Below are positions 14,086 through 60,315 of a DNA stretch of 64,000 nt, in pieces (position 1 is the stretch's first letter; each line of letters opens with the position of its first letter). Location of the stretch: the NCBI GenBank assembly GCA_963695225.1, contig OY968762.1:2560001-2624000 (forward strand), in the 5' to 3' direction. The position numbers were made by a program, and so were the translations under genes. Under the pieces are notes generated by a model. That model had not been told where the DNA came from. It was given only the letters and a program-made list of their open reading frames with translations, and did not search any database. This DNA comes from Vulcanimicrobiota bacterium (GTDB taxonomy: Bacteria; Vulcanimicrobiota; Vulcanimicrobiia; Vulcanimicrobiales; Vulcanimicrobiaceae).

Positions 14086-14127
14086 GTGCCGGCTATCACG
14101 GTTGCGCCCGGCTCGGGCGAGTAGATT
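14086..14127 (+). promoter_or_regulatory. CRP-type site + class II promoter for bchYZ
   Basis: tGTGccggctatCAC, 22 nt, TAGATT. Confidence 0.7.
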
Positions 14128-14169
14128 GACGTGGACCGTCGAACTGCGGCGGGCGGAGGGTTCCCCACT

Positions 14170-15477
14170 TTGAGCAAGCAACCGTCGTCGATGTGCCCGG
14201 CTTTCGGGGCGATCCGGAACGTCCTGCGCATGGAAGACGCGATGCCGATCGTGATCTCCAGCGGCGACGGCTGCCTCTACGGGCACACGTTCGTGGCGCA
14301 CTTCTACGTGGCGAACCGGCCGATCTTCTCCCCCGGCGTCAGTTCGGAGATCTGGGCGCGTGGGACGATGTTCGACGAATTGCGCGCGATGGTGACCGAG
14401 ATGGCGGAGAAGCACTCCCCTGCGATCATCCCGATCCTCTCGCTCTGCGTCTCGGATACCGTCGGGCTGCCGTTCGACCTGTTGCCCAAGCAGATCGGGA
14501 ACACCGAGATCATCTATGTCCCCCTTCCGGCCTACAGCGTCCACACGCACGCGAAGGCGAAGGACATCGTCGTCGACGCGCTCACCTGGCGGCTGCCCCC
14601 TCAGCGCAAGGCGCGCGCGGGCGTCAACTTGATCGGCGAAGTCTTCCCGAGCGATCCGATCAAGATCGACGAAGTGCTGCGCAAGGTCGGAACGCACGTG
14701 AACACGCACGTCCCGGGGCCGCGCTGGGCGGATTACGTCGCGATGGTCGACGGCGCCCTGAACGCGCCGCTCCATCCGTTTTATAGCGAGAGCGTCGCGC
14801 GGATGAAGATGAAGCAGGGGCTGCCGTTCGTCGACGGCGCGCCCGTCGGGATCGACGGCACCTACAACTGGATCAAGGCGGTCGGCGAGGCGCTGGCGCT
14901 GGATCCCGCGACGGTCGAACGGGTCGCGAGCGAAGAGCGCGACGCCGTCAAAGCCGCGATGGCCGACTACCCGCTCAACGGGCTGACCATGCTCGTCGCG
15001 GGGTACGACGGGCACGAGTTCATGCTCGTCCGCCTGCTGATCGAGGCCGGTGCGAACGTCCCTTATCTGGCGACCGCGGTCAATACGAATCCGCTCGCGC
15101 GCGAGGAGGAGGCGTGGTTGCGCGAACACGGCTGTTCCGTGCTCTACAAGGCGAACTTCGACGCCGAGATCGCGGCCCTGACCGAACATCCCTACGATCT
15201 GGTCGTCGGGACGACGACGACGATCTGCGCCTACGCCAAGAAGCTCGGCATCCCGGCGATCTACGATACGAACGCGCTCGCGACCCGGTCGCTCATGCTC
15301 GCGCAAGGCGCCTCGGAAATCTTGCAGCTCGTGATGCAGACCTTCCGCCGCAAGGATCGCTACGAGAAGATCGCCCGGTTCTTCAGCGACGACGGCGAAC
15401 TCAACAATCCGGCATCCAGACCGGCCTCCAAGATCGATTTGACCGAGATCGCCCTCGCCCAGGGAGCGCAGGAATAA
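14170..15477 (+). CDS. bchY: Chlorophyllide a reductase subunit Y
   Basis: QPSSMCPAFG, GCLYG.TFVAHFY, LCV, GAPVGIDGT, RLLIEAGA.VPY; TTG start after GGAGGG. Confidence 0.9.
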   Translation: MSKQPSSMCPAFGAIRNVLRMEDAMPIVISSGDGCLYGHTFVAHFYVANRPIFSPGVSSEIWARGTMFDELRAMVTEMAEKHSPAIIPILSLCVSDTVGLPFDLLPKQIGNTEIIYVPLPAYSVHTHAKAKDIVVDALTWRLPPQRKARAGVNLIGEVFPSDPIKIDEVLRKVGTHVNTHVPGPRWADYVAMVDGALNAPLHPFYSESVARMKMKQGLPFVDGAPVGIDGTYNWIKAVGEALALDPATVERVASEERDAVKAAMADYPLNGLTMLVAGYDGHEFMLVRLLIEAGANVPYLATAVNTNPLAREEEAWLREHGCSVLYKANFDAEIAALTEHPYDLVVGTTTTICAYAKKLGIPAIYDTNALATRSLMLAQGASEILQLVMQTFRRKDRYEKIARFFSDDGELNNPASRPASKIDLTEIALAQGAQE

Positions 15478-15478
15478 C

Positions 15479-17068
15479 GTGGCCCGTCCAGTCCGCGCCA
15501 ATTTTCAGACGAAAGAACTGCAATCCGACGTCGTCAACTCGCCGATCGGGAATCGGGTTACGGATCTCGATCATGCCGGCGGCGACACGGGGGCGATGCA
15601 GGTCTTCGCCGCGTTGCGCGACGGGCACGTCGTCCTCGACGGGCCGGTCGGCTGCCACGTGATGCCGGCGGTCGCGGTCATCAACTATACGGATTGCATC
15701 CCGTATTTGCAGAACGTCACCTGTTCGGAACTGAGCGAGCAGGAAGTCGCGATCTCCGGGACGCTCGATGCCGTCAAGGAGAAGGTCGAACTCGCCGCGG
15801 CTTCCGGCCGCCAGGTCTTCATCGTCAGCACGCCCGTCTCGGAACTGATCGGTGCGAGTTGGACGACGACGGACCAGGACGTCAAGGGATCGGCCCTCTT
15901 CTTCGACGCGCACGCGCTCGACGACGACGATTGGAAAGCCCGCGACCGGGCGCTGCTCTTCCTCTGGGAACATCGCGACCACTTCGTTCCCCCGGACGGC
16001 GTGCCGCCCCGCGTCAAGAGCTCGCGGCCCTCGGTCAACGTGATCGGCCCGACGTACGGCAACTTCAATTCGTACAGCGATCTCGCCGAGATCAAGCGCT
16101 TGATCGAGGGCATTGGGGCGAGCCTCAACCTCGTCTTCCCGTTCGAAGCCTCGAGCTACGACACGCCGCACCTCGCGGACGCCGACGCCACGATCCTGAT
16201 GTATCAGGAATACGGCAAGTCGCTGGCGCGCGAAGTCGGCCTGCCGACGTTCCACGCCCCGTTCGGGCTCGAGAACACGACGGCGTTCCTGCGCGAGCTG
16301 GGTGCGACGCTCGGACTTGAGGCCGAGGCCGAAGCCTTCATCAAGAAAGAGAAGAAGACGACGCTCGCCGCCTGGCAAGATATCTGGCGCTCCACGCACA
16401 GCGACTTCTTCGCCGACATGCCGATCGCGATCGTCGCCCCGCCGACGTACAAGGACGGGCTCGAAGCCTACCTCCACGGCGAACTCGGTTTGCCGATAAG
16501 CTTCAGCGCCTACCGCTCCGGCCCCCAGAAGACGCCGAGCCCCGACGTGCGCGCGGCGCTCTGCGAGGCGAGCCCGAGTCCGATGATCGTCTTCGGCTCG
16601 ATCAACGAGCGAATGATCCTCAAGCAGGAGAAGCTCCCCTCGCTCTACGTGCAAGTCTCCTTCCCGGGCGCCGTAGTGCGGCGCTCGACCGGGACGCCCT
16701 ACATGGGTTACGCCGGCGCGGTCTGGTTGCTGCAGGTCGTCTGCGAGGCGCTCTTCGATACGCTCTTCGCGAACCTCCCGACCTCCGCGGTTCCGCCGCA
16801 ACGAGCCGACGCGACGACCAAATCGATGCTCGCGACCGCCGCGGAAATCGTCAGCGAGAGCGGGAAGGGCCGCAACAGCATCATCGCCTGGACCGACGAA
16901 GCGAAGGCGCTCGCCGAAGCCACGCTCAAACGCGTCCCGTTCTTCGTCCGCGTCTCCGTGAACAAGAAGCTCCGCGCCGAGGCCGAGTCGCTCGCGCGCG
17001 AGCGCGGCACGGACGTCGACGGCCCTCTCGTGCGCGAGATCGTCGCGCGCTTCTCGGCCGGCAGATAA
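15479..17068 (+). CDS. bchZ: Chlorophyllide a reductase subunit Z
   Basis: DGPVGC, VINYTD, NVIGPTYG.FN..SDLAEIKRLIEGIG, SFPGAVVRR.TGTPYMGYAGA, C-terminal PCP_red-like domain. Confidence 0.92.
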   Translation: MARPVRANFQTKELQSDVVNSPIGNRVTDLDHAGGDTGAMQVFAALRDGHVVLDGPVGCHVMPAVAVINYTDCIPYLQNVTCSELSEQEVAISGTLDAVKEKVELAAASGRQVFIVSTPVSELIGASWTTTDQDVKGSALFFDAHALDDDDWKARDRALLFLWEHRDHFVPPDGVPPRVKSSRPSVNVIGPTYGNFNSYSDLAEIKRLIEGIGASLNLVFPFEASSYDTPHLADADATILMYQEYGKSLAREVGLPTFHAPFGLENTTAFLRELGATLGLEAEAEAFIKKEKKTTLAAWQDIWRSTHSDFFADMPIAIVAPPTYKDGLEAYLHGELGLPISFSAYRSGPQKTPSPDVRAALCEASPSPMIVFGSINERMILKQEKLPSLYVQVSFPGAVVRRSTGTPYMGYAGAVWLLQVVCEALFDTLFANLPTSAVPPQRADATTKSMLATAAEIVSESGKGRNSIIAWTDEAKALAEATLKRVPFFVRVSVNKKLRAEAESLARERGTDVDGPLVREIVARFSAGR

Positions 17069-40000: not shown

Positions 40001-40871
40001 TGACGAGCGCGTCGAGGCGCTCCTTCGCGAGCCATTCGCGCACCGCGACGTGCGATTCGATCCCCGTTACGAAGACGGGATAGACGTAGAGCTTGCGCGC
40101 TTCCAGCGCGCGCAGCACGTCGTCGATGTAGCCTTTGTCCTGCAGCAGATGCTTGCGGAAGAAGAGCAGACCGATCGTGCCCTGCGCGTTTTGCGGTTTT
40201 CCGCGGCGGTCGCGCCAGCGGCGGAAGGCCTTCGGATCGTGGAACAGATCCGGCGCGTCCGGGTGGTAGAGGCCCATCAGCGGAACGTCGGAGGCCGGCT
40301 CCACGCGCGCCGTCCCGCCGAAATACTCGCGCAGGATGAAGCGGAACATGTTGACGATGTTCGACGCTTCCGGCTGGTTCCAGTAGATGTTGACCTGCAT
40401 CCAGTTCTTGAAGTCGTGCATCCGTTCGGGGATGAAACGCATCATCACGCGCGTGAACTTCATCAGCTTGGTGAAGCCGTAGAGCGTGTCTTCCTCGCGC
40501 CCGCCGACGAGCATCCGCGCGACCTTCTTCATGCCCTCGGGCATGCCGGTCTTGCCGGCCATCGAATACTCGCCGACCTTCGTCAGCGACATCACCTCGG
40601 GCATCGACTCGAACGCGAAGACGGTCTTCGCGCGCGATTGCAGGACTTGCTCGCGCAGCCAATCCGCCTCGGTCTTGAAGTTGAGCATCGTCATGAAGAC
40701 GCAATCCGCATCGCGAATCGCCTGCGCCGCCTCGGGAGACTGCTTTTGCAGATCTTTTTCGGTGAAGCGCGAGAGCGTGGCGTCGGGTGCGATCTGTTCG
40801 TGAACCTCGCGCCAGAGCGCCTCGTTATAGTGCTCCATGCCGACGACGGCAACGATGTGCGGTTTGCTCAT
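37062..40871 (-). CDS. bchH: Magnesium chelatase subunit H
   Basis: IGFALVGGPA, HVGMHGSAEWMPG, NNPSEA..AKRRG, PTGRNLHAIDP, LWGLD.IKT.GE, RTKLLNPRWYEGML. Confidence 0.95.
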   Translation of the reverse strand: MSKPHIVAVVGMEHYNEALWREVHEQIAPDATLSRFTEKDLQKQSPEAAQAIRDADCVFMTMLNFKTEADWLREQVLQSRAKTVFAFESMPEVMSLTKVGEYSMAGKTGMPEGMKKVARMLVGGREEDTLYGFTKLMKFTRVMMRFIPERMHDFKNWMQVNIYWNQPEASNIVNMFRFILREYFGGTARVEPASDVPLMGLYHPDAPDLFHDPKAFRRWRDRRGKPQNAQGTIGLLFFRKHLLQDKGYIDDVLRALEARKLYVYPVFVTGIESHVAVREWLAKERLDALVSTIGFALVGGPAGSTKAGQAAEISLEILSKLNAPYIVTQPLYVQDYADWKEHGVGPMQSAVLYSVPEMDGAISPVVLGALKDGRFVAEPDRLARLADLTSRWVALRRKKNSEKRIAIVAYDFPPGVGKKATAALLDVPSSILELLRKLKAEGYSVGELPATREELLHQIDVATDSHQAVTSGQARVVTRAQFREITSPRERERLEARWGSFPGEMGAMGRDAVFVGGLQFGNIYVGIQPRYYLEGDPMRLLFDKENVPPYQYLAFYRYVSRQYRADAMIHVGMHGSAEWMPGLQLGLTSDCWPDALLGELPHLYLYPSNNPSEANLAKRRGYATMISHAVPPLSRAGLYKELLQLNDLLTDYRERLRAAGAESAALDPAIEEAIMERVALANIDTDCPRMAGEAFGTYASRLYAYLHELQERLITGTLHVLGVAAAPSTQVTLVTEALKAHGNGSSVASLAIKALQPGTAGGYADISTRARKGDPVALELRQAVDSACQAFVERSIFSDEPPVAAFGAAVGSHHHLEAGVAEHLREAVDYGRSLKIALADNRCELDAIARALSGGFIAPAPGGDLIRDGASVMPTGRNLHAIDPWRIPSEAAYLRGSKIGATIVKRHLEESGGVYPESIAQVLWGLDTIKTKGEAVATVLHFIGARPAYDGQGKISHYELIPLAELGRPRIDVVLNLSPVFRDTFEVVMDYLDKVIRAAAAADEPVEMNYIKKHVADEMERGTTFDDASARVLTQAPGSYGTYVDDMVDDSAWKTQDDLESVYLRRNSYAYGNGRHGQPVPQILDRLLGTVGRVVQEIDSIEFGISDIDHYFSSSGALFMAAKRRSGAPSGVKLNYVESFTAETTVRDVDQVLRTEYRTKLLNPRWYEGMLEHGNSGAAEISNRFTYMLGWDAVTSAVDDWVWNDAAQTFALDDTMRERLQKLNPGAMKNISGRLLEANGRGLWNSDEETIARLKSIYEDCTDRLEGAG

Positions 40872-40872
40872 G

Positions 40873-42678
40873 TCAGAGATGCCTCACGATGTCCGCTGCG
40901 TTCGCATTCGGAAGATACAGGTAACGCGCGTCGAGATAATCGGCGAGGCGCGGGGCGTAGCCGCGCGAGAGATAATCGACCTGTGTGTCGACGACGATCG
41001 CCCGGCAACCGTCTGCTCGGATGAGAGCGCAGACTCGGCGGACTTCGTCGTCGATCTCGGCTTCGCTTGCCCGCTCGCCGTCGGGACGCGGCTGGAGGGG
41101 GACGTTCCCCCGCCCGTCCGTCATCAGGATCAACACGGATTGCTGCAGGCCGCGGGCCCGGGCTTGGCGCGCGGTCTGCCAAGCCGCGACGAGCGCGGCG
41201 GCGAGCGGCGTCGCGCCGCCCGTCGGAAGGACGTCGAGTTCGCGCTTCGCCCGCTCGACGCTCTGCGTGGGAGGGAGCAGCACTTTTGCCTCGCGCCCGC
41301 GGAACGAGATCAAGCCGATGTGGTCGCGGTGGACGTAGGCCTGCTGCAGGAGCGTCGTGACCGCCCCTTTCGCTTCGCGCATGCGGTTCACGGCCATCGA
41401 GCCCGAGGCGTCGACGACGAACAGGAAGAGCGTCCCCGCCTTCGTGCGGAAGCGTTTGATACGGAAATCGTCGCGCTCGACCGCGAAGCGGGACCCCGCG
41501 CCGCGCATCTTCTGACGCGGTGCGGCCGCGATCAGCGTGGGGAAGAGCGCGAGCGAGCCGGTCTTCGGGGAGCCGGGGTGGGCGCCGACGACCCGGCCGC
41601 GCTTGGCGTGCTTCGTCTCGCCGCGGCTTCCGGCCGATCCGCGGGCGGCCTTCGCGAAGGGCATGTTGAGCAGATTCGGCGGCAGGATCACGGCGACCGA
41701 GCCGACGAGCAGCTCGCCCGCCGATTCGGCGCTTTCGCCTTCCGGCGGTTCCTCGTCGTCCTTCTCGGGCTCGTCGTCCGGCTCGGAGGCCGCTTGCTCT
41801 TGCGGCTCCTCTTGCTTCTGCTGCTCGGGAGGCTCCGGCGGTTTCGGCATTTGCGTCGCGCGCGGGAGCAGGACGAGCTTGCAAGCAAGCGCCACGTCGT
41901 CGTCGGAGACGGCCGCCCGGCCCCCGAGCGCGGCGCTCGCGATAGCGGCGCGGGCGGCGAAGATGTCGGCCCGGTTACCTTCGACGCCGAGGCTGAGCGC
42001 GGCGAGGGAGAGTTCGGTCAGCTGCTCGTCCTCGATCGTCACCGCGGCCAGGCGCGCTCGGGCGCGTGCGACGTTCTCGCGCCATAGGGCGATTTCGTCG
42101 GCGTCGTCTTTTGCGGAGGCGGGGCGGTCGCGGCCGGTGACGGCGCGGACGACGTCGGCCCGGCCTTCGGGGTCCCGCTGGGCGGGCAGCGCGACGATCA
42201 GCGCGAGCCGGTCGAGAATGTCACGCGGCGGCTCGCCGTCGCTCGGGTCGAAGCTCGCGACGAGCATGAAGCGGGCCGGCTGCACGAGGCTCAGGCCTTC
42301 CCGCTCGATCGCGACGCTGCCGCGAGACATCACGTCGAGGAGCTGCGTGACGACCGCTTGGTCGAGCCGGTTGAGCGCGTCGACGTACAGGACGCCGCCG
42401 TCGGCGCGCGCCAGGACGCCGCTCTCGACCACGCGCCGGCCGGTCGTGAGCATCGTCTCGAAATCGAGGCCGCCGAGGACCCGATCCTGCGTGATTCCGA
42501 GCGGCAGCTCAACGAACGGGGCGCCCTCGGGGATCGCGTGGGCGAGCGTGCGCGCGAGCGAGCTCTTCCCGGAACCGACGGAGCCTGAGATCGCGAGGCC
42601 GCCCAATCCCGGGTCGACCGCTAGGAGGAGCGTCGCTTCGAGTGCTGCTTCGAGTCCGACGAGCCGGCTCGCCAACAT
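40873..42678 (-). CDS. bchD: Magnesium chelatase subunit D
   Basis: AAA-like N-term, Pro/acidic linker, vWA DASGSMAVNRM..AKGA, TDGRGN. Confidence 0.95.
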   Translation of the reverse strand: MLASRLVGLEAALEATLLLAVDPGLGGLAISGSVGSGKSSLARTLAHAIPEGAPFVELPLGITQDRVLGGLDFETMLTTGRRVVESGVLARADGGVLYVDALNRLDQAVVTQLLDVMSRGSVAIEREGLSLVQPARFMLVASFDPSDGEPPRDILDRLALIVALPAQRDPEGRADVVRAVTGRDRPASAKDDADEIALWRENVARARARLAAVTIEDEQLTELSLAALSLGVEGNRADIFAARAAIASAALGGRAAVSDDDVALACKLVLLPRATQMPKPPEPPEQQKQEEPQEQAASEPDDEPEKDDEEPPEGESAESAGELLVGSVAVILPPNLLNMPFAKAARGSAGSRGETKHAKRGRVVGAHPGSPKTGSLALFPTLIAAAPRQKMRGAGSRFAVERDDFRIKRFRTKAGTLFLFVVDASGSMAVNRMREAKGAVTTLLQQAYVHRDHIGLISFRGREAKVLLPPTQSVERAKRELDVLPTGGATPLAAALVAAWQTARQARARGLQQSVLILMTDGRGNVPLQPRPDGERASEAEIDDEVRRVCALIRADGCRAIVVDTQVDYLSRGYAPRLADYLDARYLYLPNANAADIVRHL

Positions 42679-42681
42679 CGG

Positions 42682-43818
42682 CTAGAGTTTCTCGAGTTCT
42701 CGCTGGATCCGCTCGTCCGAATCCGTCGTCTCCAGCGGATCGCGCCGCAGGCGGTGGCGGAGGGCCATCAGGGCCACGGTGCGCACGTCGCCGAGCGTCG
42801 CACGCTTATGACCCTGGTAGGCGGCATGCGCGCACGCTGCGCGCGTGATGGTCAACTCGCCGCGATGCCCGTCGATCCCCAAGTCGGAACAGAGCTGCGC
42901 GATCGCGAGCAGGACGTCGTCGGGCATCGCGACGGCGCCGGCGCGCTTGCGCGCCCGGGCGATGCGCGAAGTCCATTCCTTTTGGTCGGCTTCCCAGGCT
43001 TCCGCGAACGCCTGGGGGTCGTTGTCGAACGACCGGCGGCGCTTGACGATCTCCACCCGCTGCACCGGGTCGAGGACGGTCGTGATGCGGACGTTGAGGC
43101 CGAAGCGGTCGAGCAGCTGCGGGCGCAGGTCGCCTTCTTCGGGATTTCCGGAGCCGACGAGGACGAAGCGCGCCGGGTGGGCGACGCTGATCCCCTCGCG
43201 CTCGACGACGTTGCGCCCGCTCGCGGCGACATCCAATAGGAGATCGACCAGATGGTCCTCCAGCAGATTGACCTCGTCGATGTACAGGAAGCCGCGATGG
43301 GCCCGGGCGAGCAGCCCCGGCTCGAAGCGCTTCTTCCCGTGGGCGAGCGCTTGCTCGATGTCGATCGTCCCGCAAATGCGATCTTCCGTCGCGCCGAGCG
43401 GGAGGTCCACGACGGGAACCGGGATCTTCTCGGTCTTCGTCGCGTGCGGCTCGTCGAATTCTTCGGGCATCCGGTTGCAGGCATCGCCCACGGCACGCGT
43501 GATGCTTGGGAGGATCTCCGCGAGAGCGCGGACCGCGGTACTCTTCGCCGTGCCGCGGTGGCCCATGATCATCACGCCGCCGACGCGTGGATCGACCACG
43601 TTCAAGATCAGCGCCAGCTTCATCTCGTCCTGGCCGACGATCGCGCTGAACGGATAGTTCGGGGCGGCGCCGTTCCGGCGTTCTGCGGGCTTGGGCTGCG
43701 GCTTCGCTTTCGGCTTCGCTTTCGTCTGTGCCGCAGCTTCCTCGGCGACGGCCACGGGAAGAACGGCCCGGGTTCCGGGAGACGGGGACGAGCCGTTGAC
43801 GGGCTGCTGAATGGACAC
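42682..43818 (-). CDS. bchI: Magnesium chelatase subunit I
   Basis: YPFSAIVGQDEMKLAL, GHRGTAKST, LYIDEVNLL, NPEEGDLRPQLLDRFG. Confidence 0.96.
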   Translation of the reverse strand: MSIQQPVNGSSPSPGTRAVLPVAVAEEAAAQTKAKPKAKPQPKPAERRNGAAPNYPFSAIVGQDEMKLALILNVVDPRVGGVMIMGHRGTAKSTAVRALAEILPSITRAVGDACNRMPEEFDEPHATKTEKIPVPVVDLPLGATEDRICGTIDIEQALAHGKKRFEPGLLARAHRGFLYIDEVNLLEDHLVDLLLDVAASGRNVVEREGISVAHPARFVLVGSGNPEEGDLRPQLLDRFGLNVRITTVLDPVQRVEIVKRRRSFDNDPQAFAEAWEADQKEWTSRIARARKRAGAVAMPDDVLLAIAQLCSDLGIDGHRGELTITRAACAHAAYQGHKRATLGDVRTVALMALRHRLRRDPLETTDSDERIQRELEKL

Positions 43819-43882: not shown

Positions 43883-43896
43883 GTGACTTTCGACAC
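43883..43896 (-). promoter_or_regulatory. CRP-type site upstream of bchI
   Basis: cGTGActttcgaCACA; best TAN3T is 25 nt away, so the spacing is imperfect. Confidence 0.45.
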
Positions 43897-43923: not shown

Positions 43924-44421
43924 CTAACGGCGGGATCGACCTCGTCTTTCCACATGCGGCGATTGCTCGCGCACGAGCGCCATCGCGCGTCGCGCCGAGG
44001 CGTGTTTGAGAACGTATTGCGTGACGTTGACGACGTACGCGAGGTAGGAGACGATCAGCACGGCGACGTTCGCCGCAAGGTTGTCGGGCGAATGGTAGTA
44101 CACGAGCAAGTAGCCGATCTGGAAGAGCGCGACGACGTACGTCATCAAGTCTTCGAGGAAGAATTGCGGCGCGAACCACCAGTAGCCGTAGACGGCCCGC
44201 TCCCAGAGCGAGCCCGTGACGACGGCGCCGGCCATCAACGCGATCTTCAGCAGCGCGGAGAGGTGCACCACGTTGAACGAGATCTGACCGGCGAAGAAGA
44301 AGCCGATCAAGATGACGCTTACGACGCACACCGCCAGTTGCGCGAACGCAAACGGCGGATGGATCCTCGTCCAAATCGTAGCCTCGCGACGCTGGGCGAT
44401 CGCGAGCCGGCTATCGTCCAT
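43924..44421 (-). CDS. bchF: 3-vinyl bacteriochlorophyllide hydratase (paralogue 1)
   Basis: RRE.TIWT.IH..FA..Q, LLKI, VTGSLWE..VYG..WFAP.FF.ED, Y.AYVVN..QY. Confidence 0.9.
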   Translation of the reverse strand: MDDSRLAIAQRREATIWTRIHPPFAFAQLAVCVVSVILIGFFFAGQISFNVVHLSALLKIALMAGAVVTGSLWERAVYGYWWFAPQFFLEDLMTYVVALFQIGYLLVYYHSPDNLAANVAVLIVSYLAYVVNVTQYVLKHASARRAMALVREQSPHVERRGRSRR

Positions 44422-44457: not shown

Positions 44458-44500
44458 ATTGTAGGATGCCTCCGGGGCCGCCGATTGTCGCCCCGGCTAC
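44458..44500 (-). promoter_or_regulatory. NtcA-type (variant) class II promoter for bchF paralogue 1
   Basis: Minus strand tGTAgccggggcGACa, 23 nt, TACAAT. Confidence 0.6.
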
Positions 44501-44607: not shown

Positions 44608-44727
44608 TTAGAGCGCGTCCTCAGGATCGATCCAGGGCCACGGAATCAGCGCGAGGATCGGAGAGGCGATGATCGTTCCCACAATGATGAGCGTGAAGAT
44701 GAGCGTGGTGCCGAATGTTGCTTCCAT
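44608..44727 (-). CDS. 39-aa single-TM peptide (copy B)
   Basis: Translates identically to 21255-21374; below the ORF-track cutoff; GGGAG RBS. Confidence 0.88.
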   Translation of the reverse strand: MEATFGTTLIFTLIIVGTIIASPILALIPWPWIDPEDAL

Positions 44728-46142: not shown

Positions 46143-46185
46143 GTAGCGCAGGCTACAGGCCGGACCGGGGGGGCTATGCTAATCT
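46143..46185 (+). promoter_or_regulatory. NtcA-type class II promoter for PYYYGG pair (copy B)
   Basis: GTAgcgcaggcTAC, 23 nt, TGc-TAATCT. Confidence 0.68.
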
Positions 46186-50802: not shown

Positions 50803-50995
50803 CCTCCCCTAATTCGGCTCTTTTGCCCGGCGTGACCGCCATCACCCATGGGAAGGGCGGTCTTCGCGCATGCTCTTAGCATCCAGCATGAGGGGCAGCC
50901 GATGGTGAAACGGGAGCGGATCCGCGGGTCCGGGAGCGGGGTGGATGGCGTTACGCCCGGCCCGCCGGCCCCAGGAAAGGCGCCCTGCGTCCTTG

Positions 50996-51037
50996 GTAAC
51001 ACGCGCTACAACGCGGCCGGGACCCGGATGCTACACT
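50996..51037 (+). promoter_or_regulatory. NtcA-type class II promoter of puf operon (copy B)
   Basis: GTAacacgcgcTAC, 22 nt, TGc-TACACT. Confidence 0.75.
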
Positions 51038-51088: not shown

Positions 51089-51271
51089 GTGGCAGCTTTG
51101 GAAGATCAGATCGTCTACGAGGAACGCAACGACCTCGTCCCCGAGGTATATCGGGATTTGTTTAACAACGCGGATTGGATCGTGCACCGCTTCACCGTCT
51201 ATGGCGTGTGGGTTTACGTCGCAACGTTCCTCGCGTGCCACACCAGCCTGTGGTGGGGACGTCCCTGGTAG
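51089..51271 (+). CDS. pufB: Light-harvesting beta subunit (copy B)
   Basis: Identical protein to 22550-22732. Confidence 0.9.
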   Translation: MAALEDQIVYEERNDLVPEVYRDLFNNADWIVHRFTVYGVWVYVATFLACHTSLWWGRPW

Positions 51272-51362
51272 TCTTTTCGACCCGTTGGTTTTGCGCTTGA
51301 TCGCGGCGCCGCCGGCTAGTAGCTAGAGCGCCGGTCTCTTAGTTTTAGAGAGGAAAAGCTTC

Positions 51363-51581
51363 ATGGCCCAGTATGTACGTCGTCCGTACAATCCGTACAA
51401 TCTCCGCGCCACCATCGGCGCCTCGCTCGTCGGCGCGACGTTCGTCGCGTTCGTGATTCACTTCGTTTGCCTGGCATCGCCGCGTCTGAACGTCTGGCAG
51501 CCGGTCAATGCAGACGGTTCTGCTCCGACGCAGGCCGAGCTGCAGCCCGCACCCGTCGCTCCCGCACCCGGCGCGAAGTAG
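51363..51581 (+). CDS. pufA: Light-harvesting alpha subunit (copy B)
   Basis: Identical protein to 22824-23042. Confidence 0.88.
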   Translation: MAQYVRRPYNPYNLRATIGASLVGATFVAFVIHFVCLASPRLNVWQPVNADGSAPTQAELQPAPVAPAPGAK

Positions 51582-51688
51582 TCTTTACTCGTCGTCCGGA
51601 GGACGCCAGCGCGCGGGTCGAGTCGTAACGCCAACGCTCGCCCTCGGTCGATTGCGCCCGAGGGCGGTGCCTAATAGGGATTGGCAAC

Positions 51689-52564
51689 ATGGCAACAGAT
51701 TTTGAATCCATCGAAACCTACTATCGCAAGCCTGGGAAGACGATCCTGGATCGTACGATCTTCGGCGGCGATTTGTTCGACACGTGGGTCGGACGGTTCT
51801 ACGTCGGGGTATGGGGCTGGATCTCGCTTGCGGGAGTCTTTGCCGCGTTAGCCGCCGTGTTTCTGTCTGCTCACGGATCGGGCGATTTCCGTTCGTGGCA
51901 GTCCGGGGACTACGACCTGCTCAGAGGAGCGGTCAATTCTCCGCCGCGCCAATACGGGCTCGGCGTAGCGCCGTTTTACGAAGGTGGAGCGTGGCAGCTC
52001 ACGGTCATCTTCGCGACGGTCGCGTTCGTCGGGTGGGCGTTACGCGAAGTGGACATTTGCCGGAAGCTCGAGATGGGCTACCACATTCCGGTGATGTTTG
52101 CGACGGCCATCTCAGCGTGGCTCTCGGTTCAGCTCGTGCGGCCGCTCTTGATGGGCTGCTGGTGCGAGGGCATGGATCTCGGGTTCACGGCTCACTTAAC
52201 GTGGACGTCCAACTACGGGTGGCGGTTCTTCAACTGGTACATGAACCCGTGGCATGACTTAGCGCTCGCCGGGTTCTTCTTAGGCGCGATGTTCCTCTCG
52301 ATGCACGGCAGTGCGATCTTGGGGACGTTCAACACCGACAAGAATCCGAAAGTCGAAATGTTGCGTGAAGACAATTTCTGGCGCGACTACGTCGGCTACT
52401 CGATCGGCGAGTACGGCATCCACCGGTTGCTGTACTACTGGGGCCTGTTCACGCTGATCAATTGCGACTTGATGGACATCACGGCCGGCCCGTTGGTGAA
52501 GGATTACATCGCGATCTGGCAGTGGCATCTCCCGTGGATTCACAACGTACCGTGGATGCAGTAG
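51689..52564 (+). CDS. pufL: Reaction centre L subunit (copy B)
   Basis: Identical protein to copy A; synonymous SNPs. Confidence 0.97.
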   Translation: MATDFESIETYYRKPGKTILDRTIFGGDLFDTWVGRFYVGVWGWISLAGVFAALAAVFLSAHGSGDFRSWQSGDYDLLRGAVNSPPRQYGLGVAPFYEGGAWQLTVIFATVAFVGWALREVDICRKLEMGYHIPVMFATAISAWLSVQLVRPLLMGCWCEGMDLGFTAHLTWTSNYGWRFFNWYMNPWHDLALAGFFLGAMFLSMHGSAILGTFNTDKNPKVEMLREDNFWRDYVGYSIGEYGIHRLLYYWGLFTLINCDLMDITAGPLVKDYIAIWQWHLPWIHNVPWMQ

Positions 52565-52581
52565 GCGGGAAGGAATAGCAG

Positions 52582-53619
52582 ATGGCAACATACATCGACC
52601 CCTATGGCATCGCGGTAGGTCCTCGCGACCCGCTGCCTCCCAAGCCGATCGAATACGCGGAGCCCAGCCCCTACGATCATCACGATCCGTTGGGCATCCG
52701 GATCGGCAAAGCGTTCCGCATTCCGTTCCTAGCGGACACGCTGTTGGTGGATTCCCAGTTTGGGACGGTATGGCTCGGGACGTGGGGCGTCTTCTCGGTC
52801 GCGTTCTTCTTCGCCGGGCTGACGATGTGGGCGGGCGCGTGCCTCGCGCAGGTTCACGGTCATCTCTCGCTGTTCTTCCAGTACTTTGCCAACGTGCAGA
52901 TCCTGCCGCCCGATCAGGGCCTAGGGTATGCTCCGACGCTCGAGAGCGGCGGCTGGTGGCAGTGGTGCGTGGGCCTGTTCGCGCTATCGGTGCTGTGCTG
53001 GCTGGGTCGTTGCTGGGAGCACTGCAAGCGTCATAACTGGCGTCCGTGGCTGTTCTTCGGATTCCTGATTCCGATCATGTGGATGGGGGCGGTGTACTTC
53101 TTCCATCCGGCGATGATGGGGACGTGGGCCGAGGCACCGCAGCTGGGCTGGTACGGCGACTTGGACTGGGCGAACAATTTCAGCATCCGTTGGGGCAACT
53201 TCTACTACAACCCGTTCCACCAGTGGGCGATCGCGAGCTTGTTCGGCAGTTCTCTGCTGATCGGCGCGCACGCCGGGACGATCTTGGCGACGGCGGCCGA
53301 AGGCAGCCATCACGAAGTGGCCGAGATCAAAGAACTGCACTCGGGTTCGTACAAGGCGATGTTGTTCTGGAAGTGGACGATGGGCTTCAATGCGACGCCG
53401 AAGTCGATCCACGTCTGGCTGTGGGCGTTCCCGGCCGCTCTTGGGACCGCGTGTTTCTGCGGGATCATGGCGTGCGGCGTGTTCACGGACAACTGGTATG
53501 TCTGGGGTGTCGACCACGGGACGGTCAAGGAATACGGTCCGATCTCTCGTGACCAGGTTCTTCGCCGGCCGTTGGCGGTGCCGATCGAAGTCGATCAACC
53601 CGGGCTTGCGCGCCCGTAA
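52582..53619 (+). CDS. pufM: Reaction centre M subunit (copy B)
   Basis: Identical protein to copy A. Confidence 0.97.
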   Translation: MATYIDPYGIAVGPRDPLPPKPIEYAEPSPYDHHDPLGIRIGKAFRIPFLADTLLVDSQFGTVWLGTWGVFSVAFFFAGLTMWAGACLAQVHGHLSLFFQYFANVQILPPDQGLGYAPTLESGGWWQWCVGLFALSVLCWLGRCWEHCKRHNWRPWLFFGFLIPIMWMGAVYFFHPAMMGTWAEAPQLGWYGDLDWANNFSIRWGNFYYNPFHQWAIASLFGSSLLIGAHAGTILATAAEGSHHEVAEIKELHSGSYKAMLFWKWTMGFNATPKSIHVWLWAFPAALGTACFCGIMACGVFTDNWYVWGVDHGTVKEYGPISRDQVLRRPLAVPIEVDQPGLARP

Positions 53620-53662
53620 GGACCTGTCGTACTAGGCAGTACTAGCAGTACTAGAGGGTATC

Positions 53663-54784
53663 ATGAGCTTTCGGCGCCTATTGGCTCCATTCATCATCAT
53701 CGCAGCGCTCGTGTTCGCCGGGCTGTTCCAACCGTTACTCGAACGAGCGCGTGCGGAGACCGGGCCGGGACCGAACACGACGCGGCCCTACGAAGGGTTT
53801 GCCGACCGTCAGGCGACGGCGTTCCAACAGCGTCCGACGGCGGTGGTCGGTCAAGGTTCTCGGACCTTCGTTCCCAATCAGCAGTACACGACGTCGGTGA
53901 CGCCGTTCTTGGGCACCCCGTACGGTGGGCCGATTCCTCCGGACCAGGCCAAGGGGGTCGGGCCGGTGGATCAATCGGCGCCGATGGACTACGCGACGCA
54001 GCCGAAGTCGGTCCCGCATGCGTACGTTGGTGGAAAGCTCTTCAACGTCCAGGTCCTCAAGAAGTATGACTACGCTGGTGTGCTCAACCAGATGAATTAC
54101 TTCGCGCAATCTCTGGGCGTGCAGTGCCAGTACTGCCACAATCTGACGAACTACGCGTACGACACCCCGACGAAGAAGCTGGCTCGCAACATGATTGCGG
54201 GGACGATCGCGATCAACTCGACGTGGGTGACTCCGGACAAGAACGCGGTTCCGACGCAGGCGGTGTCGGGCGCGGTCGGATGCGCGACGTGCCATCGCGG
54301 TTCTGCGCGGTTGGACGTTCACTACAACATCGTTCCGGTGCAGTACGTTCAGTATCGTTACAAGACGACCAAGCAACTCGGTTACGTATACAACGCGATG
54401 TACGGCGTGGCGCGGTCGTTGGGCGTGAACTGCCTGTTCTGCCACAACACCGCCGACTTCGTCACCCTGCGGTACTACCCGACGAACAAGCTGGCGTTGC
54501 GGATGTTCTACATGGTGGACGACATCAACCACAAGTACTTCCCGCCGTCGGTCAAAGCGGTGACGTGCTACACGTGCCACCAGGGCGCGAAGTGGCCGGC
54601 AGCGCTGGTGAAGGCCGGCGACGACCAGACCCCGATCGAAAGCGTGGCCGCGCACCCGACCGCTCACTACAATCCCGGCGATCCGGTGGACATGAACGGC
54701 AACGTGAAGCAGCATCAGCCGATCAACGGCTGGAACACCCTCTACCCCGACCGGTTCTGGGGCTCGATGGGAGTCCCCGAGTAA
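53663..54784 (+). CDS. pufC: Reaction-centre tetraheme cytochrome c (copy B)
   Basis: Identical protein to copy A. Confidence 0.93.
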   Translation: MSFRRLLAPFIIIAALVFAGLFQPLLERARAETGPGPNTTRPYEGFADRQATAFQQRPTAVVGQGSRTFVPNQQYTTSVTPFLGTPYGGPIPPDQAKGVGPVDQSAPMDYATQPKSVPHAYVGGKLFNVQVLKKYDYAGVLNQMNYFAQSLGVQCQYCHNLTNYAYDTPTKKLARNMIAGTIAINSTWVTPDKNAVPTQAVSGAVGCATCHRGSARLDVHYNIVPVQYVQYRYKTTKQLGYVYNAMYGVARSLGVNCLFCHNTADFVTLRYYPTNKLALRMFYMVDDINHKYFPPSVKAVTCYTCHQGAKWPAALVKAGDDQTPIESVAAHPTAHYNPGDPVDMNGNVKQHQPINGWNTLYPDRFWGSMGVPE

Positions 54785-55525: not shown

Positions 55526-55567
55526 GAAGCCGAGGCTACAACGGGCGGGGCGCACTTTCGGTACACT
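55526..55567 (+). promoter_or_regulatory. NtcA-type (variant) class II promoter for 144-aa gene (copy B)
   Basis: tGAAgccgaggcTACa, 22 nt, TACACT. Confidence 0.65.
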
Positions 55568-56135: not shown

Positions 56136-56354
56136 AGGGGCCTCGCAGACGATCGGCGATCGCGGACCGGCCGCGCGGGGGGGCGCGGCCGGCTGCGCGA
56201 AAACCGTTTCGACCGTCGAAGCGAGTGCCGTTACACTCGGTTCGAACGTCTGATAAGGCGTCGACGTCTGCAAGACCAGCGCCTTCGGCAGGCGCAAGGG
56301 CTACATACATTCCCCGTGTCACTCGTTACAATGCCGCTGGAAGATGTAGCCTCT

Positions 56355-56396
56355 GTGCCGACTATCACGGTTGCACTTCGGTTGGGCGAGTAGCCT
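56355..56396 (+). promoter_or_regulatory. CRP-type site + class II promoter for carotenoid operon
   Basis: tGTGccgactatCAC, 22 nt, TAGCCT; nearly the same block as upstream of bchY. Confidence 0.7.
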
Positions 56397-56501: not shown

Positions 56502-57896
56502 TTGATCGCAACGTCGGAACCGGATGTCCTGATCGTCGGCGGCGGCCCTGCAGGGCTCGCTACTGCGAAGTATTTGGCCGACGCGGGGAAGAGCGCGCTC
56601 GTTCTCGAGAAGCGCCCCATCGCGGGCGGTATGCTTTCGTCTTGGCGCGACCGCGACGGCGATTGGCTCGAGAGCGGCCTGCATTCGCTGTTCGGCGGCT
56701 ACGATCGCGTCCACCAGCTGCTCGAGGACGTCGGAATCTCGGGCAACGTGCGCTGGCAGCCGCACACGCTCACGTTTGCGATGCCGCCGCATTTCAGCTC
56801 GCGCTTCAACGGCCAGCCGATCTTCGAAGAGTTCGAATTCGTCAACGCGCCCCATCCGCTTCACGGCGTCGGCGCGGTTCTCAAGGGAAAGTACGTCTTC
56901 AATACCGTTGAGAAGCTCCAGTTCGCCAAGGGGACGCTTCCGGTGCTGTTCGGCGATCACGACTACGCGGAACGGCAAGACGATCTGACATACGTCCAGT
57001 GGCACCGGATGCGAGGAATGAGCGAGCACATGCTCCGCACGTTCTTCGCGCCGATGGCGCTCGCGCTGAATTTCACGCCGGCGGATCGGATCTCGGCGGA
57101 AGCGATGCTGCGCGTCTTCGCGTATTTTGCCTCGAGCCGGAACGCGAGCAGGGCCGGCTTCCTCAACGGGCCGCCGTCCTTGATGCTGATCGAGCCGATC
57201 GTCGAACATTTGCGCAAGCGCGGCCAACGCGTCGAGATGGGCGCCGGTGCGGCAGAACTTCTGTTCGAGGGCGATCGCTGCGTCGGCGTACGGACGCGCG
57301 ACGGGCGCACGTTCGGCGGTAAGGTCGTCGTCTTCGCCGGAAGGGTCCACGATGCGGCGCGCCTGCTCCCGGCCGAGATGCTCCGCGACCCGCTCGTCGC
57401 GGGGATCGCGAAGCTCGAATCGAGCCCGGTCATCAACGCGCACCTCTGGTTCGACCGGAAGATCTCGCGATTCTCGAACCTCGTGTTCGGCGCGGGCACG
57501 CTGCTCCCGGTCCATGCCGACCTCGGCCAATCGACGAGCGGGTACGAATGGCCCGACCGCTCGTTCGTCGAGATCTGCGTTGCCCCGGCCGACGATCTTA
57601 TGAAGCTCGACGACGACGCGATCGTCGATCGTATCATGGACGACATGCTGCGCCTGTATCCGCTCGCCACGCGCGAGCACTTGGTCAAGGCGAAGCTCGT
57701 CCGCATTCCCAAGAGCGTCTATCGCGCGAGCCCCGGCGCCGAGCGCCTGCGGCCCGGCGTGCGTACGCCCGTGAAGAACCTGTTGCTGGCGGGATGTTAC
57801 ACGAACATGAAATTCCCGGCGAGCATCGAGGGGGCGACGCGCAGCGCTCAAATCGCGACCGACGCCGCGTTGGAGCTTCTCGGTGTTCGAGCGTAA
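56502..57896 (+). CDS. CrtP/CrtQ-type (PDS/ZDS-like) carotenoid desaturase
   Basis: GG..SSWRD.DGDW.ESGLH..FG.Y, EKLQFA, QD.LT...W.R, FF.PMA.ALNF, FLNG.P, ASIEGA..S. Confidence 0.82.
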   Translation: MIATSEPDVLIVGGGPAGLATAKYLADAGKSALVLEKRPIAGGMLSSWRDRDGDWLESGLHSLFGGYDRVHQLLEDVGISGNVRWQPHTLTFAMPPHFSSRFNGQPIFEEFEFVNAPHPLHGVGAVLKGKYVFNTVEKLQFAKGTLPVLFGDHDYAERQDDLTYVQWHRMRGMSEHMLRTFFAPMALALNFTPADRISAEAMLRVFAYFASSRNASRAGFLNGPPSLMLIEPIVEHLRKRGQRVEMGAGAAELLFEGDRCVGVRTRDGRTFGGKVVVFAGRVHDAARLLPAEMLRDPLVAGIAKLESSPVINAHLWFDRKISRFSNLVFGAGTLLPVHADLGQSTSGYEWPDRSFVEICVAPADDLMKLDDDAIVDRIMDDMLRLYPLATREHLVKAKLVRIPKSVYRASPGAERLRPGVRTPVKNLLLAGCYTNMKFPASIEGATRSAQIATDAALELLGVRA

Positions 57897-58779
57897 AGAA
57901 GTGCTCGAAGGCTGCGTCGAGCTGACCGCGGCGGGGACGCCCGAACTCGAGCAGGCATATCGCGCCTGCCGCGAGCTGACGAAGACTGCTTCGAAGACCT
58001 TCTACATGGCGTCGCTCTTCCTCGGCCCCGAGAAACGCCGGGCGATTTGGGCGATCTACGCGTTCTGCCGGACCGCCGACGACATCGTCGACCGGAACAC
58101 GCCCGCAGCGGCTCGCCTGGCCTCCATCGACGAGCTCGAGCGGAAGCTGATCGCGGCGGTGCACGGGTATGCGGTCGAGCCTATCTTCGTCGCCTATCAC
58201 GATGCGACGAAGAACTTCGACGTGCCGCTCGAGCCCGCGCTCGACCTGTTGCGCGGATTGCGGATGGACATCACGATCCGCCGCTATCCCACGTACGAGT
58301 CGCTGCTCGACTATTGCTATCACGTCGCGTCGACGATCGGGTTGCTCGTCGCGCCGGTGCTGGGCTATTCGAACGGCGCGCTCGAGTACGCGGTCGCGCT
58401 CGGCCGCGCGATGCAGTTGACGAACATCCTGAGGGACATCGGTGAGGACGCGCGCATGGGGCGCATCTACCTTCCCTCGGAGGATCTGGCGCGCTTCGGC
58501 TACTGTGAGAGCAACGTCTTCGAGGAGGTCATCGACGACTCGTTCGTCGCGCTCATGCAGTTCCAGATCGCGCGCGTCCGCAAACTGTATGCCTCCGCGG
58601 AGCCCGGAATCGCCCTGCTGGCTCCGGAAAGCCGCTACACGGTGCGGCTGGCGCTCGCGCTCTACTCGCGGATCTTGCGCGCAATCGAATTGAACCGGTA
58701 CGACGTGTTCGGCAAGCGCGCGTACGTCCCGTTCCGTTCGAAGGTCCTGACCGCGATGACCTTAGCGCTCGCGCGCTAA
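57883..58779 (+). CDS. crtB: Phytoene synthase
   Basis: SKTFY, AIYAFCRTADDIVD, YCYHVA, QLTNILRDIGEDA..GRIYLP. Confidence 0.93.
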   Translation: MFERKEVLEGCVELTAAGTPELEQAYRACRELTKTASKTFYMASLFLGPEKRRAIWAIYAFCRTADDIVDRNTPAAARLASIDELERKLIAAVHGYAVEPIFVAYHDATKNFDVPLEPALDLLRGLRMDITIRRYPTYESLLDYCYHVASTIGLLVAPVLGYSNGALEYAVALGRAMQLTNILRDIGEDARMGRIYLPSEDLARFGYCESNVFEEVIDDSFVALMQFQIARVRKLYASAEPGIALLAPESRYTVRLALALYSRILRAIELNRYDVFGKRAYVPFRSKVLTAMTLALAR

Positions 58780-59261: not shown

Positions 59262-59524
59262 GGGGATTAAGGCCCCCGCCGCAGAGAACATGAATCGCCA
59301 GCCCCGATCGCCCGCCCCGGCTCAGGGCAGAACAGAAGGGCTCGCTGAATCAGGGGAGACGCATGGGTCAATCGCTCGGGTCCCGGGAATTCGCTCCGGC
59401 GGAGGCACACTTAGCCCGGCTTTGGGGCGGAATGGCAGGGCTCTCTCGAACTTCGGTCCAAGCGCAGGGAGAGCGCCCTTTCCTTACTGTGGGCGTGTAC
59501 TTTCCTTCGAGGGCGGCTCAGTAG

Positions 59525-60208
59525 TTGGAACTGTTTTGGAGCCTTCCAAGCGTCTCACTGATCGCGGGCACGAACGATCGCTCGGTCGAGATGCTATTTG
59601 CCGGATCCCCCGTCCGTCGCTTCGACGAGGGTGGCCGGCTATCAGATCCCGACGCTCGGCCGGAAAGAACGTTCCTTTGCCTTAGTGGTACGCTCAAGGT
59701 GACGAAACTGCTGGCGAGCGGCCGTGAGATCTTGATCACGATCCTCCAGGCGGGTTCGATCTGGAGCGACCGCGCCGTTTTGAACGGATACTGGCGCGAC
59801 GTCTTCATCGAGACGATGGAACCGAGCGATATCGTTGCGATCGAGAACGCCGCGTTCGAAGATTATCTCCGTTCGCGTCCGGAACTCGTATCGAGTTTCA
59901 TGGTTCGCATCTCCGAGCAGGTCAGCGACGCGCTGACGCTGCTCGACGATTTCCGCGGCAGGGACGTCGCCTCGCGCCTGGCGAGCGTGCTGATCCGCTT
60001 CTCGAAGCAATATGGGGTCCCGACGGACGACGGGGTTCGCATCGACCTTCCGGTCACGCACCAGGACCTCGCAAACATGATCGGAACGGCGCGCGAAACG
60101 GTCTCTCGCAACATGGGGCGCTTTCGCAAGAAGGGCATGGTTCGAGAAGCCGAAGGGCACGCTTTGGAAATCGTCAATATCGGCGGATTAGAGTCCCTCA
60201 TCGTTTAG
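59525..60208 (+). CDS. Crp/Fnr-family regulator with CRP-like recognition helix
   Basis: GREILITIL, RDVASRLA, VTHQDLANMIGTARETVSR. Confidence 0.9.
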   Translation: MELFWSLPSVSLIAGTNDRSVEMLFAGSPVRRFDEGGRLSDPDARPERTFLCLSGTLKVTKLLASGREILITILQAGSIWSDRAVLNGYWRDVFIETMEPSDIVAIENAAFEDYLRSRPELVSSFMVRISEQVSDALTLLDDFRGRDVASRLASVLIRFSKQYGVPTDDGVRIDLPVTHQDLANMIGTARETVSRNMGRFRKKGMVREAEGHALEIVNIGGLESLIV

Positions 60209-60273
60209 GCCGCCCGCGCTGGGAGCGCATCCTCTGAGCTCGCCGAAGGGTGAGTTCGTCGAAGGCGCGGGGC

Positions 60274-60315
60274 GTGACAGCCATCACCGAGGGGGCTCGC
60301 GGCCGACGATACGAT
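60274..60315 (+). promoter_or_regulatory. CRP-type site + class II promoter for bchF-bchC-bchX
   Basis: cGTGAcagccaTCAC, 22 nt, TACGAT; GTG start 5 nt downstream. Confidence 0.72.

Follow-up and report, generated by a model that had tools for sequence, protein, structure and literature searches.

Two Crp-family proteins and two promoter classes suggest tiered control of photosynthesis genes in Vulcanimicrobiota

Photosynthesis regulation has been worked out mainly in purple bacteria (PpsR, PrrA, and FnrL) and in cyanobacteria. AadR and FixK of Rhodopseudomonas palustris both use FNR-type boxes; neither of them is known to carry a globin domain or to be encoded by a puf operon. The available part of one report describes AadR and FixK as a Crp-to-Crp hierarchy in an anoxygenic phototroph (PMC13345007), an arrangement also proposed below for another pair. 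The accessible text on Rhodobacter sphaeroides describes two Crp/Fnr paralogues acting on photosynthesis genes, FnrL and CrpK, the latter of which, like CrpA of the present study, is without the iron-sulfur (Fe-S) cysteines (PMC4263372). A 2025 review, in the part available, describes regulation as poorly known in phototrophs that are aerobic and anoxygenic (PMC12654162). For the little-studied phylum Vulcanimicrobiota, which includes photosynthetic bacteria from soil, Crp and FNR do not occur in the main text of the two main papers on phototrophy (PMC9758169; 10.1101/534180), and a literature search whose coverage left out most subscription journals and supplements found no photosynthesis regulator. 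Here, we analyzed a 64,000-nt stretch of a Vulcanimicrobiota genome (the window, part of the 2.98-Mb genome G000), which contains bacteriochlorophyll (bch), carotenoid (crt), and puf genes together with genes of Crp-family proteins, among them crpA and crpB2. Labels such as G001 denote other genomes. The results point to two regulons with different operator motifs, class A and class B, probably arranged with class B above class A.

The pattern GTG-N8-CAC followed by 22 nt and TAN3T was found exactly three times in the window (14086-14127, 56355-56396, and 60274-60315), upstream of bchY-bchZ, crtP-crtB, and bchF-bchC-bchX, as a sequence-only reading of this DNA had reported with the same gene names. 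In 200 order-3 Markov windows, the mean count was 0.055 and the maximum was 1. When spacings from 12 to 33 nt were scanned in the window, three matches were detected at 22 nt, one at 25 nt, and one at 31 nt, and the whole genome contained seven matches to the pattern. The promoters at 14086 and 56355 are near-identical over ~45 nt. They are likely one duplicated promoter rather than independent evidence, with that at 14086 being a copy of the crtP promoter, and mrp flanks bchY here and the crt operon in relatives. We then scored the genome with a class A matrix built from 76 sites, with the own genus left out (lowest training score, 9.3 bits). Its top six matches preceded bchL, bchF (60274), bchM, bchN, puf copy 2 (50832), and bchH2, and the six best matches of the class A matrix and of the class B matrix all lay in the photosynthesis region. 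The 50832 site and the four sites outside the window, which head bchN-B-G-P, bchL, the second bchH (bchH2), and bchM-acsF, had been missed in the sequence-only reading.

Conservation of the sites was examined in a family sample of 348 genomes, 30 of which have bchY. The class A motif is GTGAY-N4-RTCAC at 22-23 nt from the -10 box, with GGGTGAY-N4-RTCACCG as a fuller consensus. Among distinct regions from relatives outside the own genus, GTG-N8-CAC was observed upstream of bchF in 22 of 24, bchM in 22/22, bchL in 7/7, and bchH2 in 4/4. Upstream of bchN it was present in 21 of 27 regions, and the six without it sit behind bchL, which itself has a site; three further bchF orthologues (labeled bchF2 by the script) also had it. 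The check on orthologous promoters that the sequence-only reading had suggested thus showed class A sites kept before bchF, bchM, bchL, bchN, and bchH2. At bchY, 7 of the 30 loci had a class A site, including those of G001, G206, G093, G094, G091, and G089; most of the others lie behind bchX, and one is at a contig edge. In G014 (L013) and G030 (L015), free-standing bchYZ has a different promoter with a TTGACG box and a GTGAT half-site and without a full class A site. When distances of 22-25 nt were searched, the best -10 box was 22 or 23 nt away for all 76 class A sites and for 27 of 28 class B sites. Matches to class A were located in photosynthesis regions in 3/3 (G024), 4/4 (G206), 2/2 (G278), 6/8 (G001), and 8/12 (G279) rows. 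The loose class A pattern alone is unspecific because it also gave 15 rows in five genomes in which bchY had no match, although TAN3T at 22 nt was absent from all 15.

Class B sites have the core GTAG-N6-CTAC. The form G[TA]A-N8-TAC was found upstream of pufB in 24 of 24 regions and upstream of a small open reading frame (ORF) pair in 4 of 4, and class A was found upstream of pufB in only 2 of the 24. All of the top six class B matches of the own genome lie inside the window. We have high confidence in the existence of the two regulons. The earlier proposal of two Crp paralogues that differ in their helices, and of separate sites for bch (class A) and puf (class B), was supported. Carotenoid genes had also been listed among the pigment operons under class A. 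For bch this held; the crt operon cannot be assigned to class A only, because a class B-type site heads it in all 17 relatives tallied, nine with an extra weak class A site and eight without. Several of these class B-type sites score only 4-7 bits, and G088, G279, G207, and G270 lie outside this tally.

Next, we considered which proteins read the two classes. The own genome encodes nine proteins with a Crp helix-turn-helix above the cut-off, and the CRP/FNR superfamily domains PF00027 and PF13545 were above the cut-off in CrpA, CrpB1, and CrpB2. The Crp genes noticed earlier at 59525 and at 3987 (3942-4664) were confirmed, with the helices GTARETVSR and GSTRETVSL, respectively. crpA was found in exactly the 30 of 348 genomes that have bchY, directly upstream of bchF or bchC in 29 of them. 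Its helix (G187-R195), with the R-E-x-x-x-R recognition pattern, is identical in at least 29 of the 30 orthologues. Since crpA and bchY co-occur in this way, CrpA is likely the class A activator, in agreement with the sequence-only reading. By contrast, the 3987 gene, which had been noted as another Crp gene, was found in 92 of 348 genomes (matches that include the unpublished genomes G257, G335, and G029, which enter no other result) and, not being specific to phototrophs, was rejected as the class A factor.

The canonical cAMP pocket reads G-E...R-S. In CrpA, the pocket reads W-S-D-R...Y-W-R/K, which is strongly conserved and is not the canonical form, and the score against the cAMP-CRP equivalog was 53 bits (cut-off, 266). 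One cysteine is present in 22 of 30 orthologues and none is at a conserved position, so that the four-cysteine Fe-S motif is absent, and no FNR box (TTGAT-N4-ATCAA) was found in the window. By these tests, CrpA was rejected as a cAMP-CRP or an FNR. PpsR was above the cut-off in none of five genomes (best score, 35 bits against 275).

The second protein, CrpB, is present in the own genome as two copies with an NtcA-type helix: crpB2 lies in the window, whereas crpB1 is found elsewhere, upstream of bchM-acsF. In the family, CrpB was found in 28 of 348 genomes, namely 27 of the 30 with bchY and G017, in which bchN and bchM are present. The copy in G207 is split, and the family genome search found none in G266 and G284. 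The helix N-R-V-T-x-T-R-K is present in 24 of 24 aligned proteins and contains the NtcA helix F residues R, V, T, and R. In the part of the source available, the presence of Val or of Glu in helix F distinguishes NtcA boxes from CRP boxes, and binding to the NtcA box is lost in V187E (PMC11850224). Because CrpA has Glu and CrpB has Val, assigning CrpA to class A and CrpB to class B appears well founded as far as helix residues can tell. CrpB2 scored 46 bits against the NtcA equivalog (cut-off, 245) and has an extra N-terminal domain; being far below the cut-off and more than a single Crp module, CrpB was rejected as an NtcA orthologue.

The N-terminal 126 residues of CrpB1 were modeled with a pLDDT of 76.5 as a globin fold. 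The highest structural similarity was to pXO2-61 and a stressosome RsbR-type domain (Z 12.1), followed by a globin-coupled sensor (10.0) and the ApcE bilin domain (9.6). The comparison gave 33 chains at Z of at least 8, nearly all of those listed being globin folds, and Z values below 13 for a helical domain call for caution in this assignment. Weak RsbRD_N matches were also detected. Foldseek gave no match to the model at E 0.001, and at E 0.1 or above globins were the only or nearly the only matches; the N-terminal sequence profile, to which only 15 cluster representatives matched, found no PDB sequence at E 10. These results predict that the N-terminal domain is a globin fold. Globin-coupled sensors have G-x-x-H at the place of the proximal ligand. 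In CrpB, no His or Cys is invariant, and G60 and Q63 are (G-x-x-Q); on the basis of that motif rather than a residue-level superposition, Q63 may occupy the F8/metal-ligand position. Divergent CrpB paralogues (32-35% identity) were observed in G030, G014, and G270 (L053:13666-14703, L055:16960-18000, and L347:7068-8108). The one in G270 and pufB are divergently oriented, and the two strong class B sites that separate them suggest autoregulation.

The order of the two tiers is suggested by gene arrangement. In 24 of 30 genomes, the crpA start is -4 to +2 nt from the pufC stop. Because of this abutment, crpA is likely the last gene of a class B puf operon, and a class B site was seen at the head of 20 of these 24 operons, the other four being cut by contig ends. 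In G030, where puf has been lost from this place, a 15.8-bit class B site directly precedes crpA, and in G206 the order is class B site-crtB-crpB1-crpA. Conversely, of 29 regions upstream of crpB genes (a partial gene was left out), 28 had class A scores of at most 1.3 bits. As crpA is likely under class B across the family and crpB is without class A in these 28 regions, a conserved arrow from class B to class A can be drawn. Decayed pufC tails precede crpA in G000, G001, G014, and G030 (z 3.1-15.7), so the ancestor of these four likely had crpA behind pufC as well. The sequence-only reading had proposed the reverse cascade with pigment-first timing; given that crpA is distal in the class B puf operon of 24 of 30 genomes, this is not supported as the general design.

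In the mechanism that we propose, CrpB would switch on puf (reaction center and antenna), the crt operon, and crpA, and CrpA would then switch on the bch operons. Apoproteins and carotenoids would thus be made first, a timing that follows from the putative binding partners, activation rather than repression, and co-transcription of crpA with puf, and that would avoid free photosensitizing pigment in an aerobe. A puf operon that stood before crpA in the ancestor was likely lost in the own lineage, where crpA now lies behind crtP-crtB, and CrpA would feed back positively on tier B through the bchF2-bchIDH-crpB2 cassette and the class A site before puf copy 2. We consider class B above class A to be probably the design of the family, on the strength of gene order and sites; the order in the own genome is less certain. 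In the pufC tail, a conserved hairpin was not supported (covariation term, -0.03). An in-frame 53-codon ORF (59363-59524) ends at the crpA start. Readthrough giving a PufC-CrpA fusion was rejected, since the gap varies from -4 to +2 nt.

CrpB-type proteins are not restricted to one phylum. Full-length homologues with the same helix were found in Chloroflexota, where they adjoin bchG or sit between bchP-bchG and crtB-bchC. We sampled 221 genomes of that class; bchY is present in 71, and the homologue was detected at E 1e-45 in 12, all with bchY. These 12 belong to the lower-scoring bchY group, which includes a Candidatus Chlorohelix record; the other 59 were negative with one query. Chlorohelix has a type I reaction center. 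In four phototrophic Chloroflexota genomes (G372-G375), which have CrpB homologues, the best matches to CrpA were 28-32% identical and were CrpB-type in 9 of 10 loci. Strict class B counts were 33, 32, and 36 in three genomes (reversed controls: 9, 3, and 10), 4 in G375 (control, 9), and 0 in the bchY-negative G376 (control, 4). Class A patterns in G372-G375 numbered 0, 2, 1, and 4 against controls of 1, 6, 13, and 3, at or near the control level. Of 105 class B matches, 30 were fetched and 24 downstream ORFs were scanned at a family cut-off of E 1e-40. Ten were tetrapyrrole or bch genes (three bchG, two acsF, two hemE, and one each of bchC, bchN, and bchI), three were ArsA/Get3 ATPases in three genomes (L287, L301, and L305), two were other enzymes, and nine had no family. 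Class B is thus not inherently the apoprotein class, because it precedes bch genes in Chloroflexota. These results suggest that CrpB is the older, top-level factor. CrpA would then be a second tier that appeared later, in one lineage, and took control of the bch genes.

In a tree of 51 rows, the Vulcanimicrobiota CrpB proteins grouped together (100/98) and joined the Chloroflexota proteins (99/96) in a clade that also holds Thermomicrobiales. This supports relatedness only, because nine rows were dropped (five CrpA, two divergent CrpB, and two Chloroflexota, including G375), long branches meet, and the tree is unrooted. The Gln equivalent to Q63 is kept in five of nine Chloroflexota homologues. 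It is a tentative and rather doubtful proposal that CrpB is a master activator across both phyla (Vulcanimicrobiota and the Chlorohelix clade), its Gln-globin sensing an Mg tetrapyrrole or another pigment intermediate, with the photosystem of Vulcanimicrobiota built protein-first through co-expression of crpA at the puf end, whose product would then open the bacteriochlorophyll pathway.

In a competing order, CrpA would turn on the pigment operons, bchIDH-crpB2 among them, and CrpB2 would in turn act on the apoprotein genes, pigment first. The start of crpB2 does overlap the bchH stop, and the weak site before bchI at 43883, which had been noted correctly, including its poorer spacing of 25 or 23 nt to a -10-like box, is kept in four of the six cassette genomes, relatives G001, G206 (two copies), and G270 among them. 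Own-genome crpA has no nearby class B site, and a class A half-site may precede crpB1 in the own genome and G001. However, among the 30 phototrophs, crpB2 lies behind bchH only in the own genome, G001, and G206, and each of these three also encodes a CrpB1 whose helix is likewise RVTVTRK. In the three, the cassette is preceded at bchF2 by a class B-like promoter, bchF-bchI carries a class B site in G014 and G030, 43883 is weak, and family-wide gene order places crpA under class B. We regard pigment-first control as quite improbable. The claim that bchIDH-crpB2 is under class A is thus not supported as a general design and survives as likely feedback within the lineage: the arm from CrpA to crpB2, together with the 50832 site, likely forms a lineage-specific positive loop, judging from the sites. 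Nor does the unit end at the NtcA-like gene, as had been thought, since a 150-aa ORF (35513-35965) overlaps the crpB2 stop codon. A more distant suggestion, that class A is read by a housekeeping cAMP-CRP or the 3987 protein and ties pigment to carbon status, draws on GTG-N8-CAC being the generic CRP core and on a Crp at genome position 561206 with a canonical-looking cAMP pocket and an RETVNR helix. It is very improbable, in view of the concentration of class A matches in photosynthesis regions, the exact tracking of bchY by CrpA and its place beside bchF or bchC, and, for the 3987 protein, its wide occurrence and Leu at the position of the third recognition-helix Arg of CRP.

Several observations weigh against the order of class B above class A. 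Relatives are kin, and counts from them are not independent; at least five other own-genome Crp proteins have an RET helix; and proteins with the NRVTVTRK helix also occur in Thermomicrobiales, G376 having one without the N-terminal domain and without a bchY match. Besides the possible half-site before crpB1, the G270 crpB region scored 8.7 bits for class A, with an uncertain start. For four of the 30 genomes (the own genome, G001, G014, and G270), the 450 nt next to crpA held no class B site, and in G270, where crpA is free-standing, no path from class B to crpA was found. crpB1 follows crtB in G088, G279, G207, and G206, and its input was resolved only in G206. In addition, the pufC tails of G000, G001, G014, and G030 have lost the frame but retain two short blocks, ~60-90 nt upstream of crpA, which could be an internal crpA promoter bypassing CrpB or another cis element. 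The blocks that outlast puf, the free-standing crpA of G270, and the strongly conserved CrpA pocket, which hints at a ligand, would fit parallel regulons without a real hierarchy, in which crpA has its own pufC-tail promoter or is constitutive and the two regulons follow separate signals. Yet the blocks are not kept in the G266, G324, and G279 groups, where crpA still abuts pufC; crpA remains behind class B sites after rearrangement in G030 and G206; and the TTG or GTG starts of 26 of 30 crpA genes suit dependence on upstream translation. Parallel control is accordingly judged unlikely, and class B above class A is retained as the probable family design.

The features of the window are listed in Table 1. 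The puf operon is present twice (22455-26829 and 50991-55340, 98% identity); an assembly artifact is unlikely because G001, G030, and G206 also hold several copies. Two puf types were seen in the family (relatives L120-L145), with PufL 88-98% identical to the window type in G001, G014, G030, and G206 and 53-58% identical in the common crpA-linked type. The small ORF pair and the bchIDH cassette accompany the rare type, which may be a replacement photosystem module. The ORF pairs 21611-21874/21915-22193 and 46284-46538/46629-46862 encode 77-92 aa with hydrophobic leaders behind strong class B sites, with ABC exporters adjoining; they are candidate antenna or assembly proteins, and the first pair had no Pfam match. 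The two 39-aa membrane peptides are identical, each behind a near-perfect class B site, and are a candidate unannotated photosystem subunit. The stem and T run after ORF 44608 was seen by eye, and the terminator scan did not list it; the sigma-70 and terminator scans were uninformative, with counts at the shuffle level. A duplicated 143-aa protein (27064-27495 and 55701-56135) lies behind class B variant sites and had no Pfam match; most relatives have a distant homologue at the head of the crt operon. The own genome has two Mg-chelatase sets and two bchF genes, the cassette (37062-44421) and a second bchH with a long ChlI-domain gene (G000 2663794-2670981) taken as a fused BchID, which is reported for the phylum in the available text of PMC9758169. 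Intergenic repeats of 80-170 nt in both orientations, REP- or MITE-like, were observed at 3604-3858, 26521-26679, 27635-27810, and 55021-55471. Outside the cluster, an intergenic class B match (G000 185130, 16.5 bits) precedes a 526-aa ORF and a class A-like one (G000 1886872, 15.3 bits) precedes a 208-aa ORF; both may be chance.

Table 1. Positions of the predicted regulatory sites and associated genes in the window
Feature	Position	Strand	Remarks
Class A promoter, weak left half-site	14086..14127	+	heads bchY-bchZ; 8.8 bits, rank 84
bchY-bchZ	14170..17068	+	putative class A target
39-aa membrane ORF, copy 1	21255..21374	-	behind class B site 21415-21428
Class B promoter	21475..21516	+	before small ORF pair 21611/21915; 20.8 bits
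Class B promoter, puf copy 1	22460..22501	+	17.1 bits
puf operon, copy 1	22550..26245	+	two small ORFs (pufB, pufA by position), pufL, pufM, pufC; divergent type, crpA not behind
Class B variant GAAG-N6-CTAC	26925..26938	+	before ORF 27064; 12.5 bits
crpB2	35962..37062	-	predicted globin domain and Crp, helix ANRVTVTRK; GTG start overlaps bchH stop; lineage-specific paralogue
bchI-bchD-bchH cassette	37062..43818	-	bchI in 6/31 genomes (own and 5/30 relatives)
Weak class A-like site	43883..43896	-	before bchI; -4.1 bits, rank 4324; 25 nt to TAATGT or 23 nt to TGTAAT
Second bchF (bchF2)	43924..44421	-	upstream of bchI
Class B-like site and TACAAT	44487..44500	-	heads bchF2, possibly bchIDH-crpB2; 12.4 bits; same in G001, G206
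39-aa membrane ORF, copy 2	44608..44727	-	behind class B site 44769-44782; terminator-like stem with T run downstream
Class B promoter	46143..46185	+	before small ORF pair 46284/46629 and ABC exporter genes; 19.6 bits
Strong class A site and CATGCT	50832..50874	+	upstream of puf copy 2; 20.2 bits, rank 5; same in G001
Class B promoter, puf copy 2	50996..51037	+	18.2 bits
puf operon, copy 2	51089..54784	+	98% identical to copy 1
Class B variant site	55526..55539	+	before ORF 55701
Degenerate class B half-site and TACAAT	56291..56332	+	tandem, ahead of crtP class A site; 0.5 bits; better kept in relatives
Class A promoter, weak left half-site	56355..56396	+	heads crtP-crtB; 7.9 bits, rank 116
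CrtP-type phytoene desaturase and crtB	56502..58779	+	
pufC 3'-end remnant	59425..59524	+	ends in stop abutting crpA start; z 3.1-5.1 against pufC ends of three relatives
crpA	59525..60208	+	Crp family, helix GTARETVSR, TTG start
Strong class A promoter	60274..60315	+	heads bchF-bchC-bchX; 22.8 bits, rank 2
bchF-bchC-bchX	60321..62787	+	putative class A target

The arrangement offers a testable circuit, as it specifies proteins and motifs (two of each), their targets, and the order of action. The blocks reported for a cultured member of the phylum (bchM-acsF, bchNBGP, bchFCXYZ, and pufBALMC) correspond to the units of this study. Uncharacterized photosystem genes are flagged by the class B motif, and the Glu/Val switch in the helix is a natural case of one pathway being split into two regulons. 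CrpB with class B sites in two phyla is also a new marker for the movement of photosynthesis and its control between lineages.

Compared with known systems, CrpB has the same helix pattern, R-V-T-x-T-R, as cyanobacterial NtcA, and class B sites share the core of NtcA class II promoters (GTA-N8-TAC, centered at -41.5) with spacing of 22-23 nt, as far as the available parts of the sources describe them (PMC11850224, PMC3898017). Unlike NtcA, CrpB carries 125 additional residues that are predicted to form a globin domain, and class B sites lie before photosynthesis rather than nitrogen genes. CrpA shares R-E-T-x-x-R with Escherichia coli CRP, and class A has GTGA-N6-TCAC at a distance from the -10 box equal to that in its class II promoters; the inner bases (GAY-N4-RTC), G/C flanks, altered pocket, and small photosynthesis-centered regulon differ. 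The CrpB model resembles the non-heme sensor globins (RsbR N-terminal domain, MtR, and pXO2-61) and globin-coupled sensors at Z 10.0-12.1 and rmsd 2.6-3.0 Å over 116-122 residues, whereas its domain is fused to a Crp regulator and is without an invariant His or Cys. FnrL and CrpK, in the accessible text, share one motif and have overlapping, mostly non-photosynthesis targets (PMC4263372), whereas two motifs divide apoprotein from pigment genes here, and the AadR-FixK hierarchy, in the part available, governs the aerobic-anaerobic shift and iron metabolism (PMC13345007). The parts are thus of known kinds: class II Crp promoters, helices of the NtcA and CRP types, hierarchies of Crp proteins, and their control of photosynthesis. 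Not found in the searched literature is their combination as two dedicated paralogues whose two motifs divide apoprotein from pigment genes, one encoded in the puf operon and the other fused to a predicted globin.

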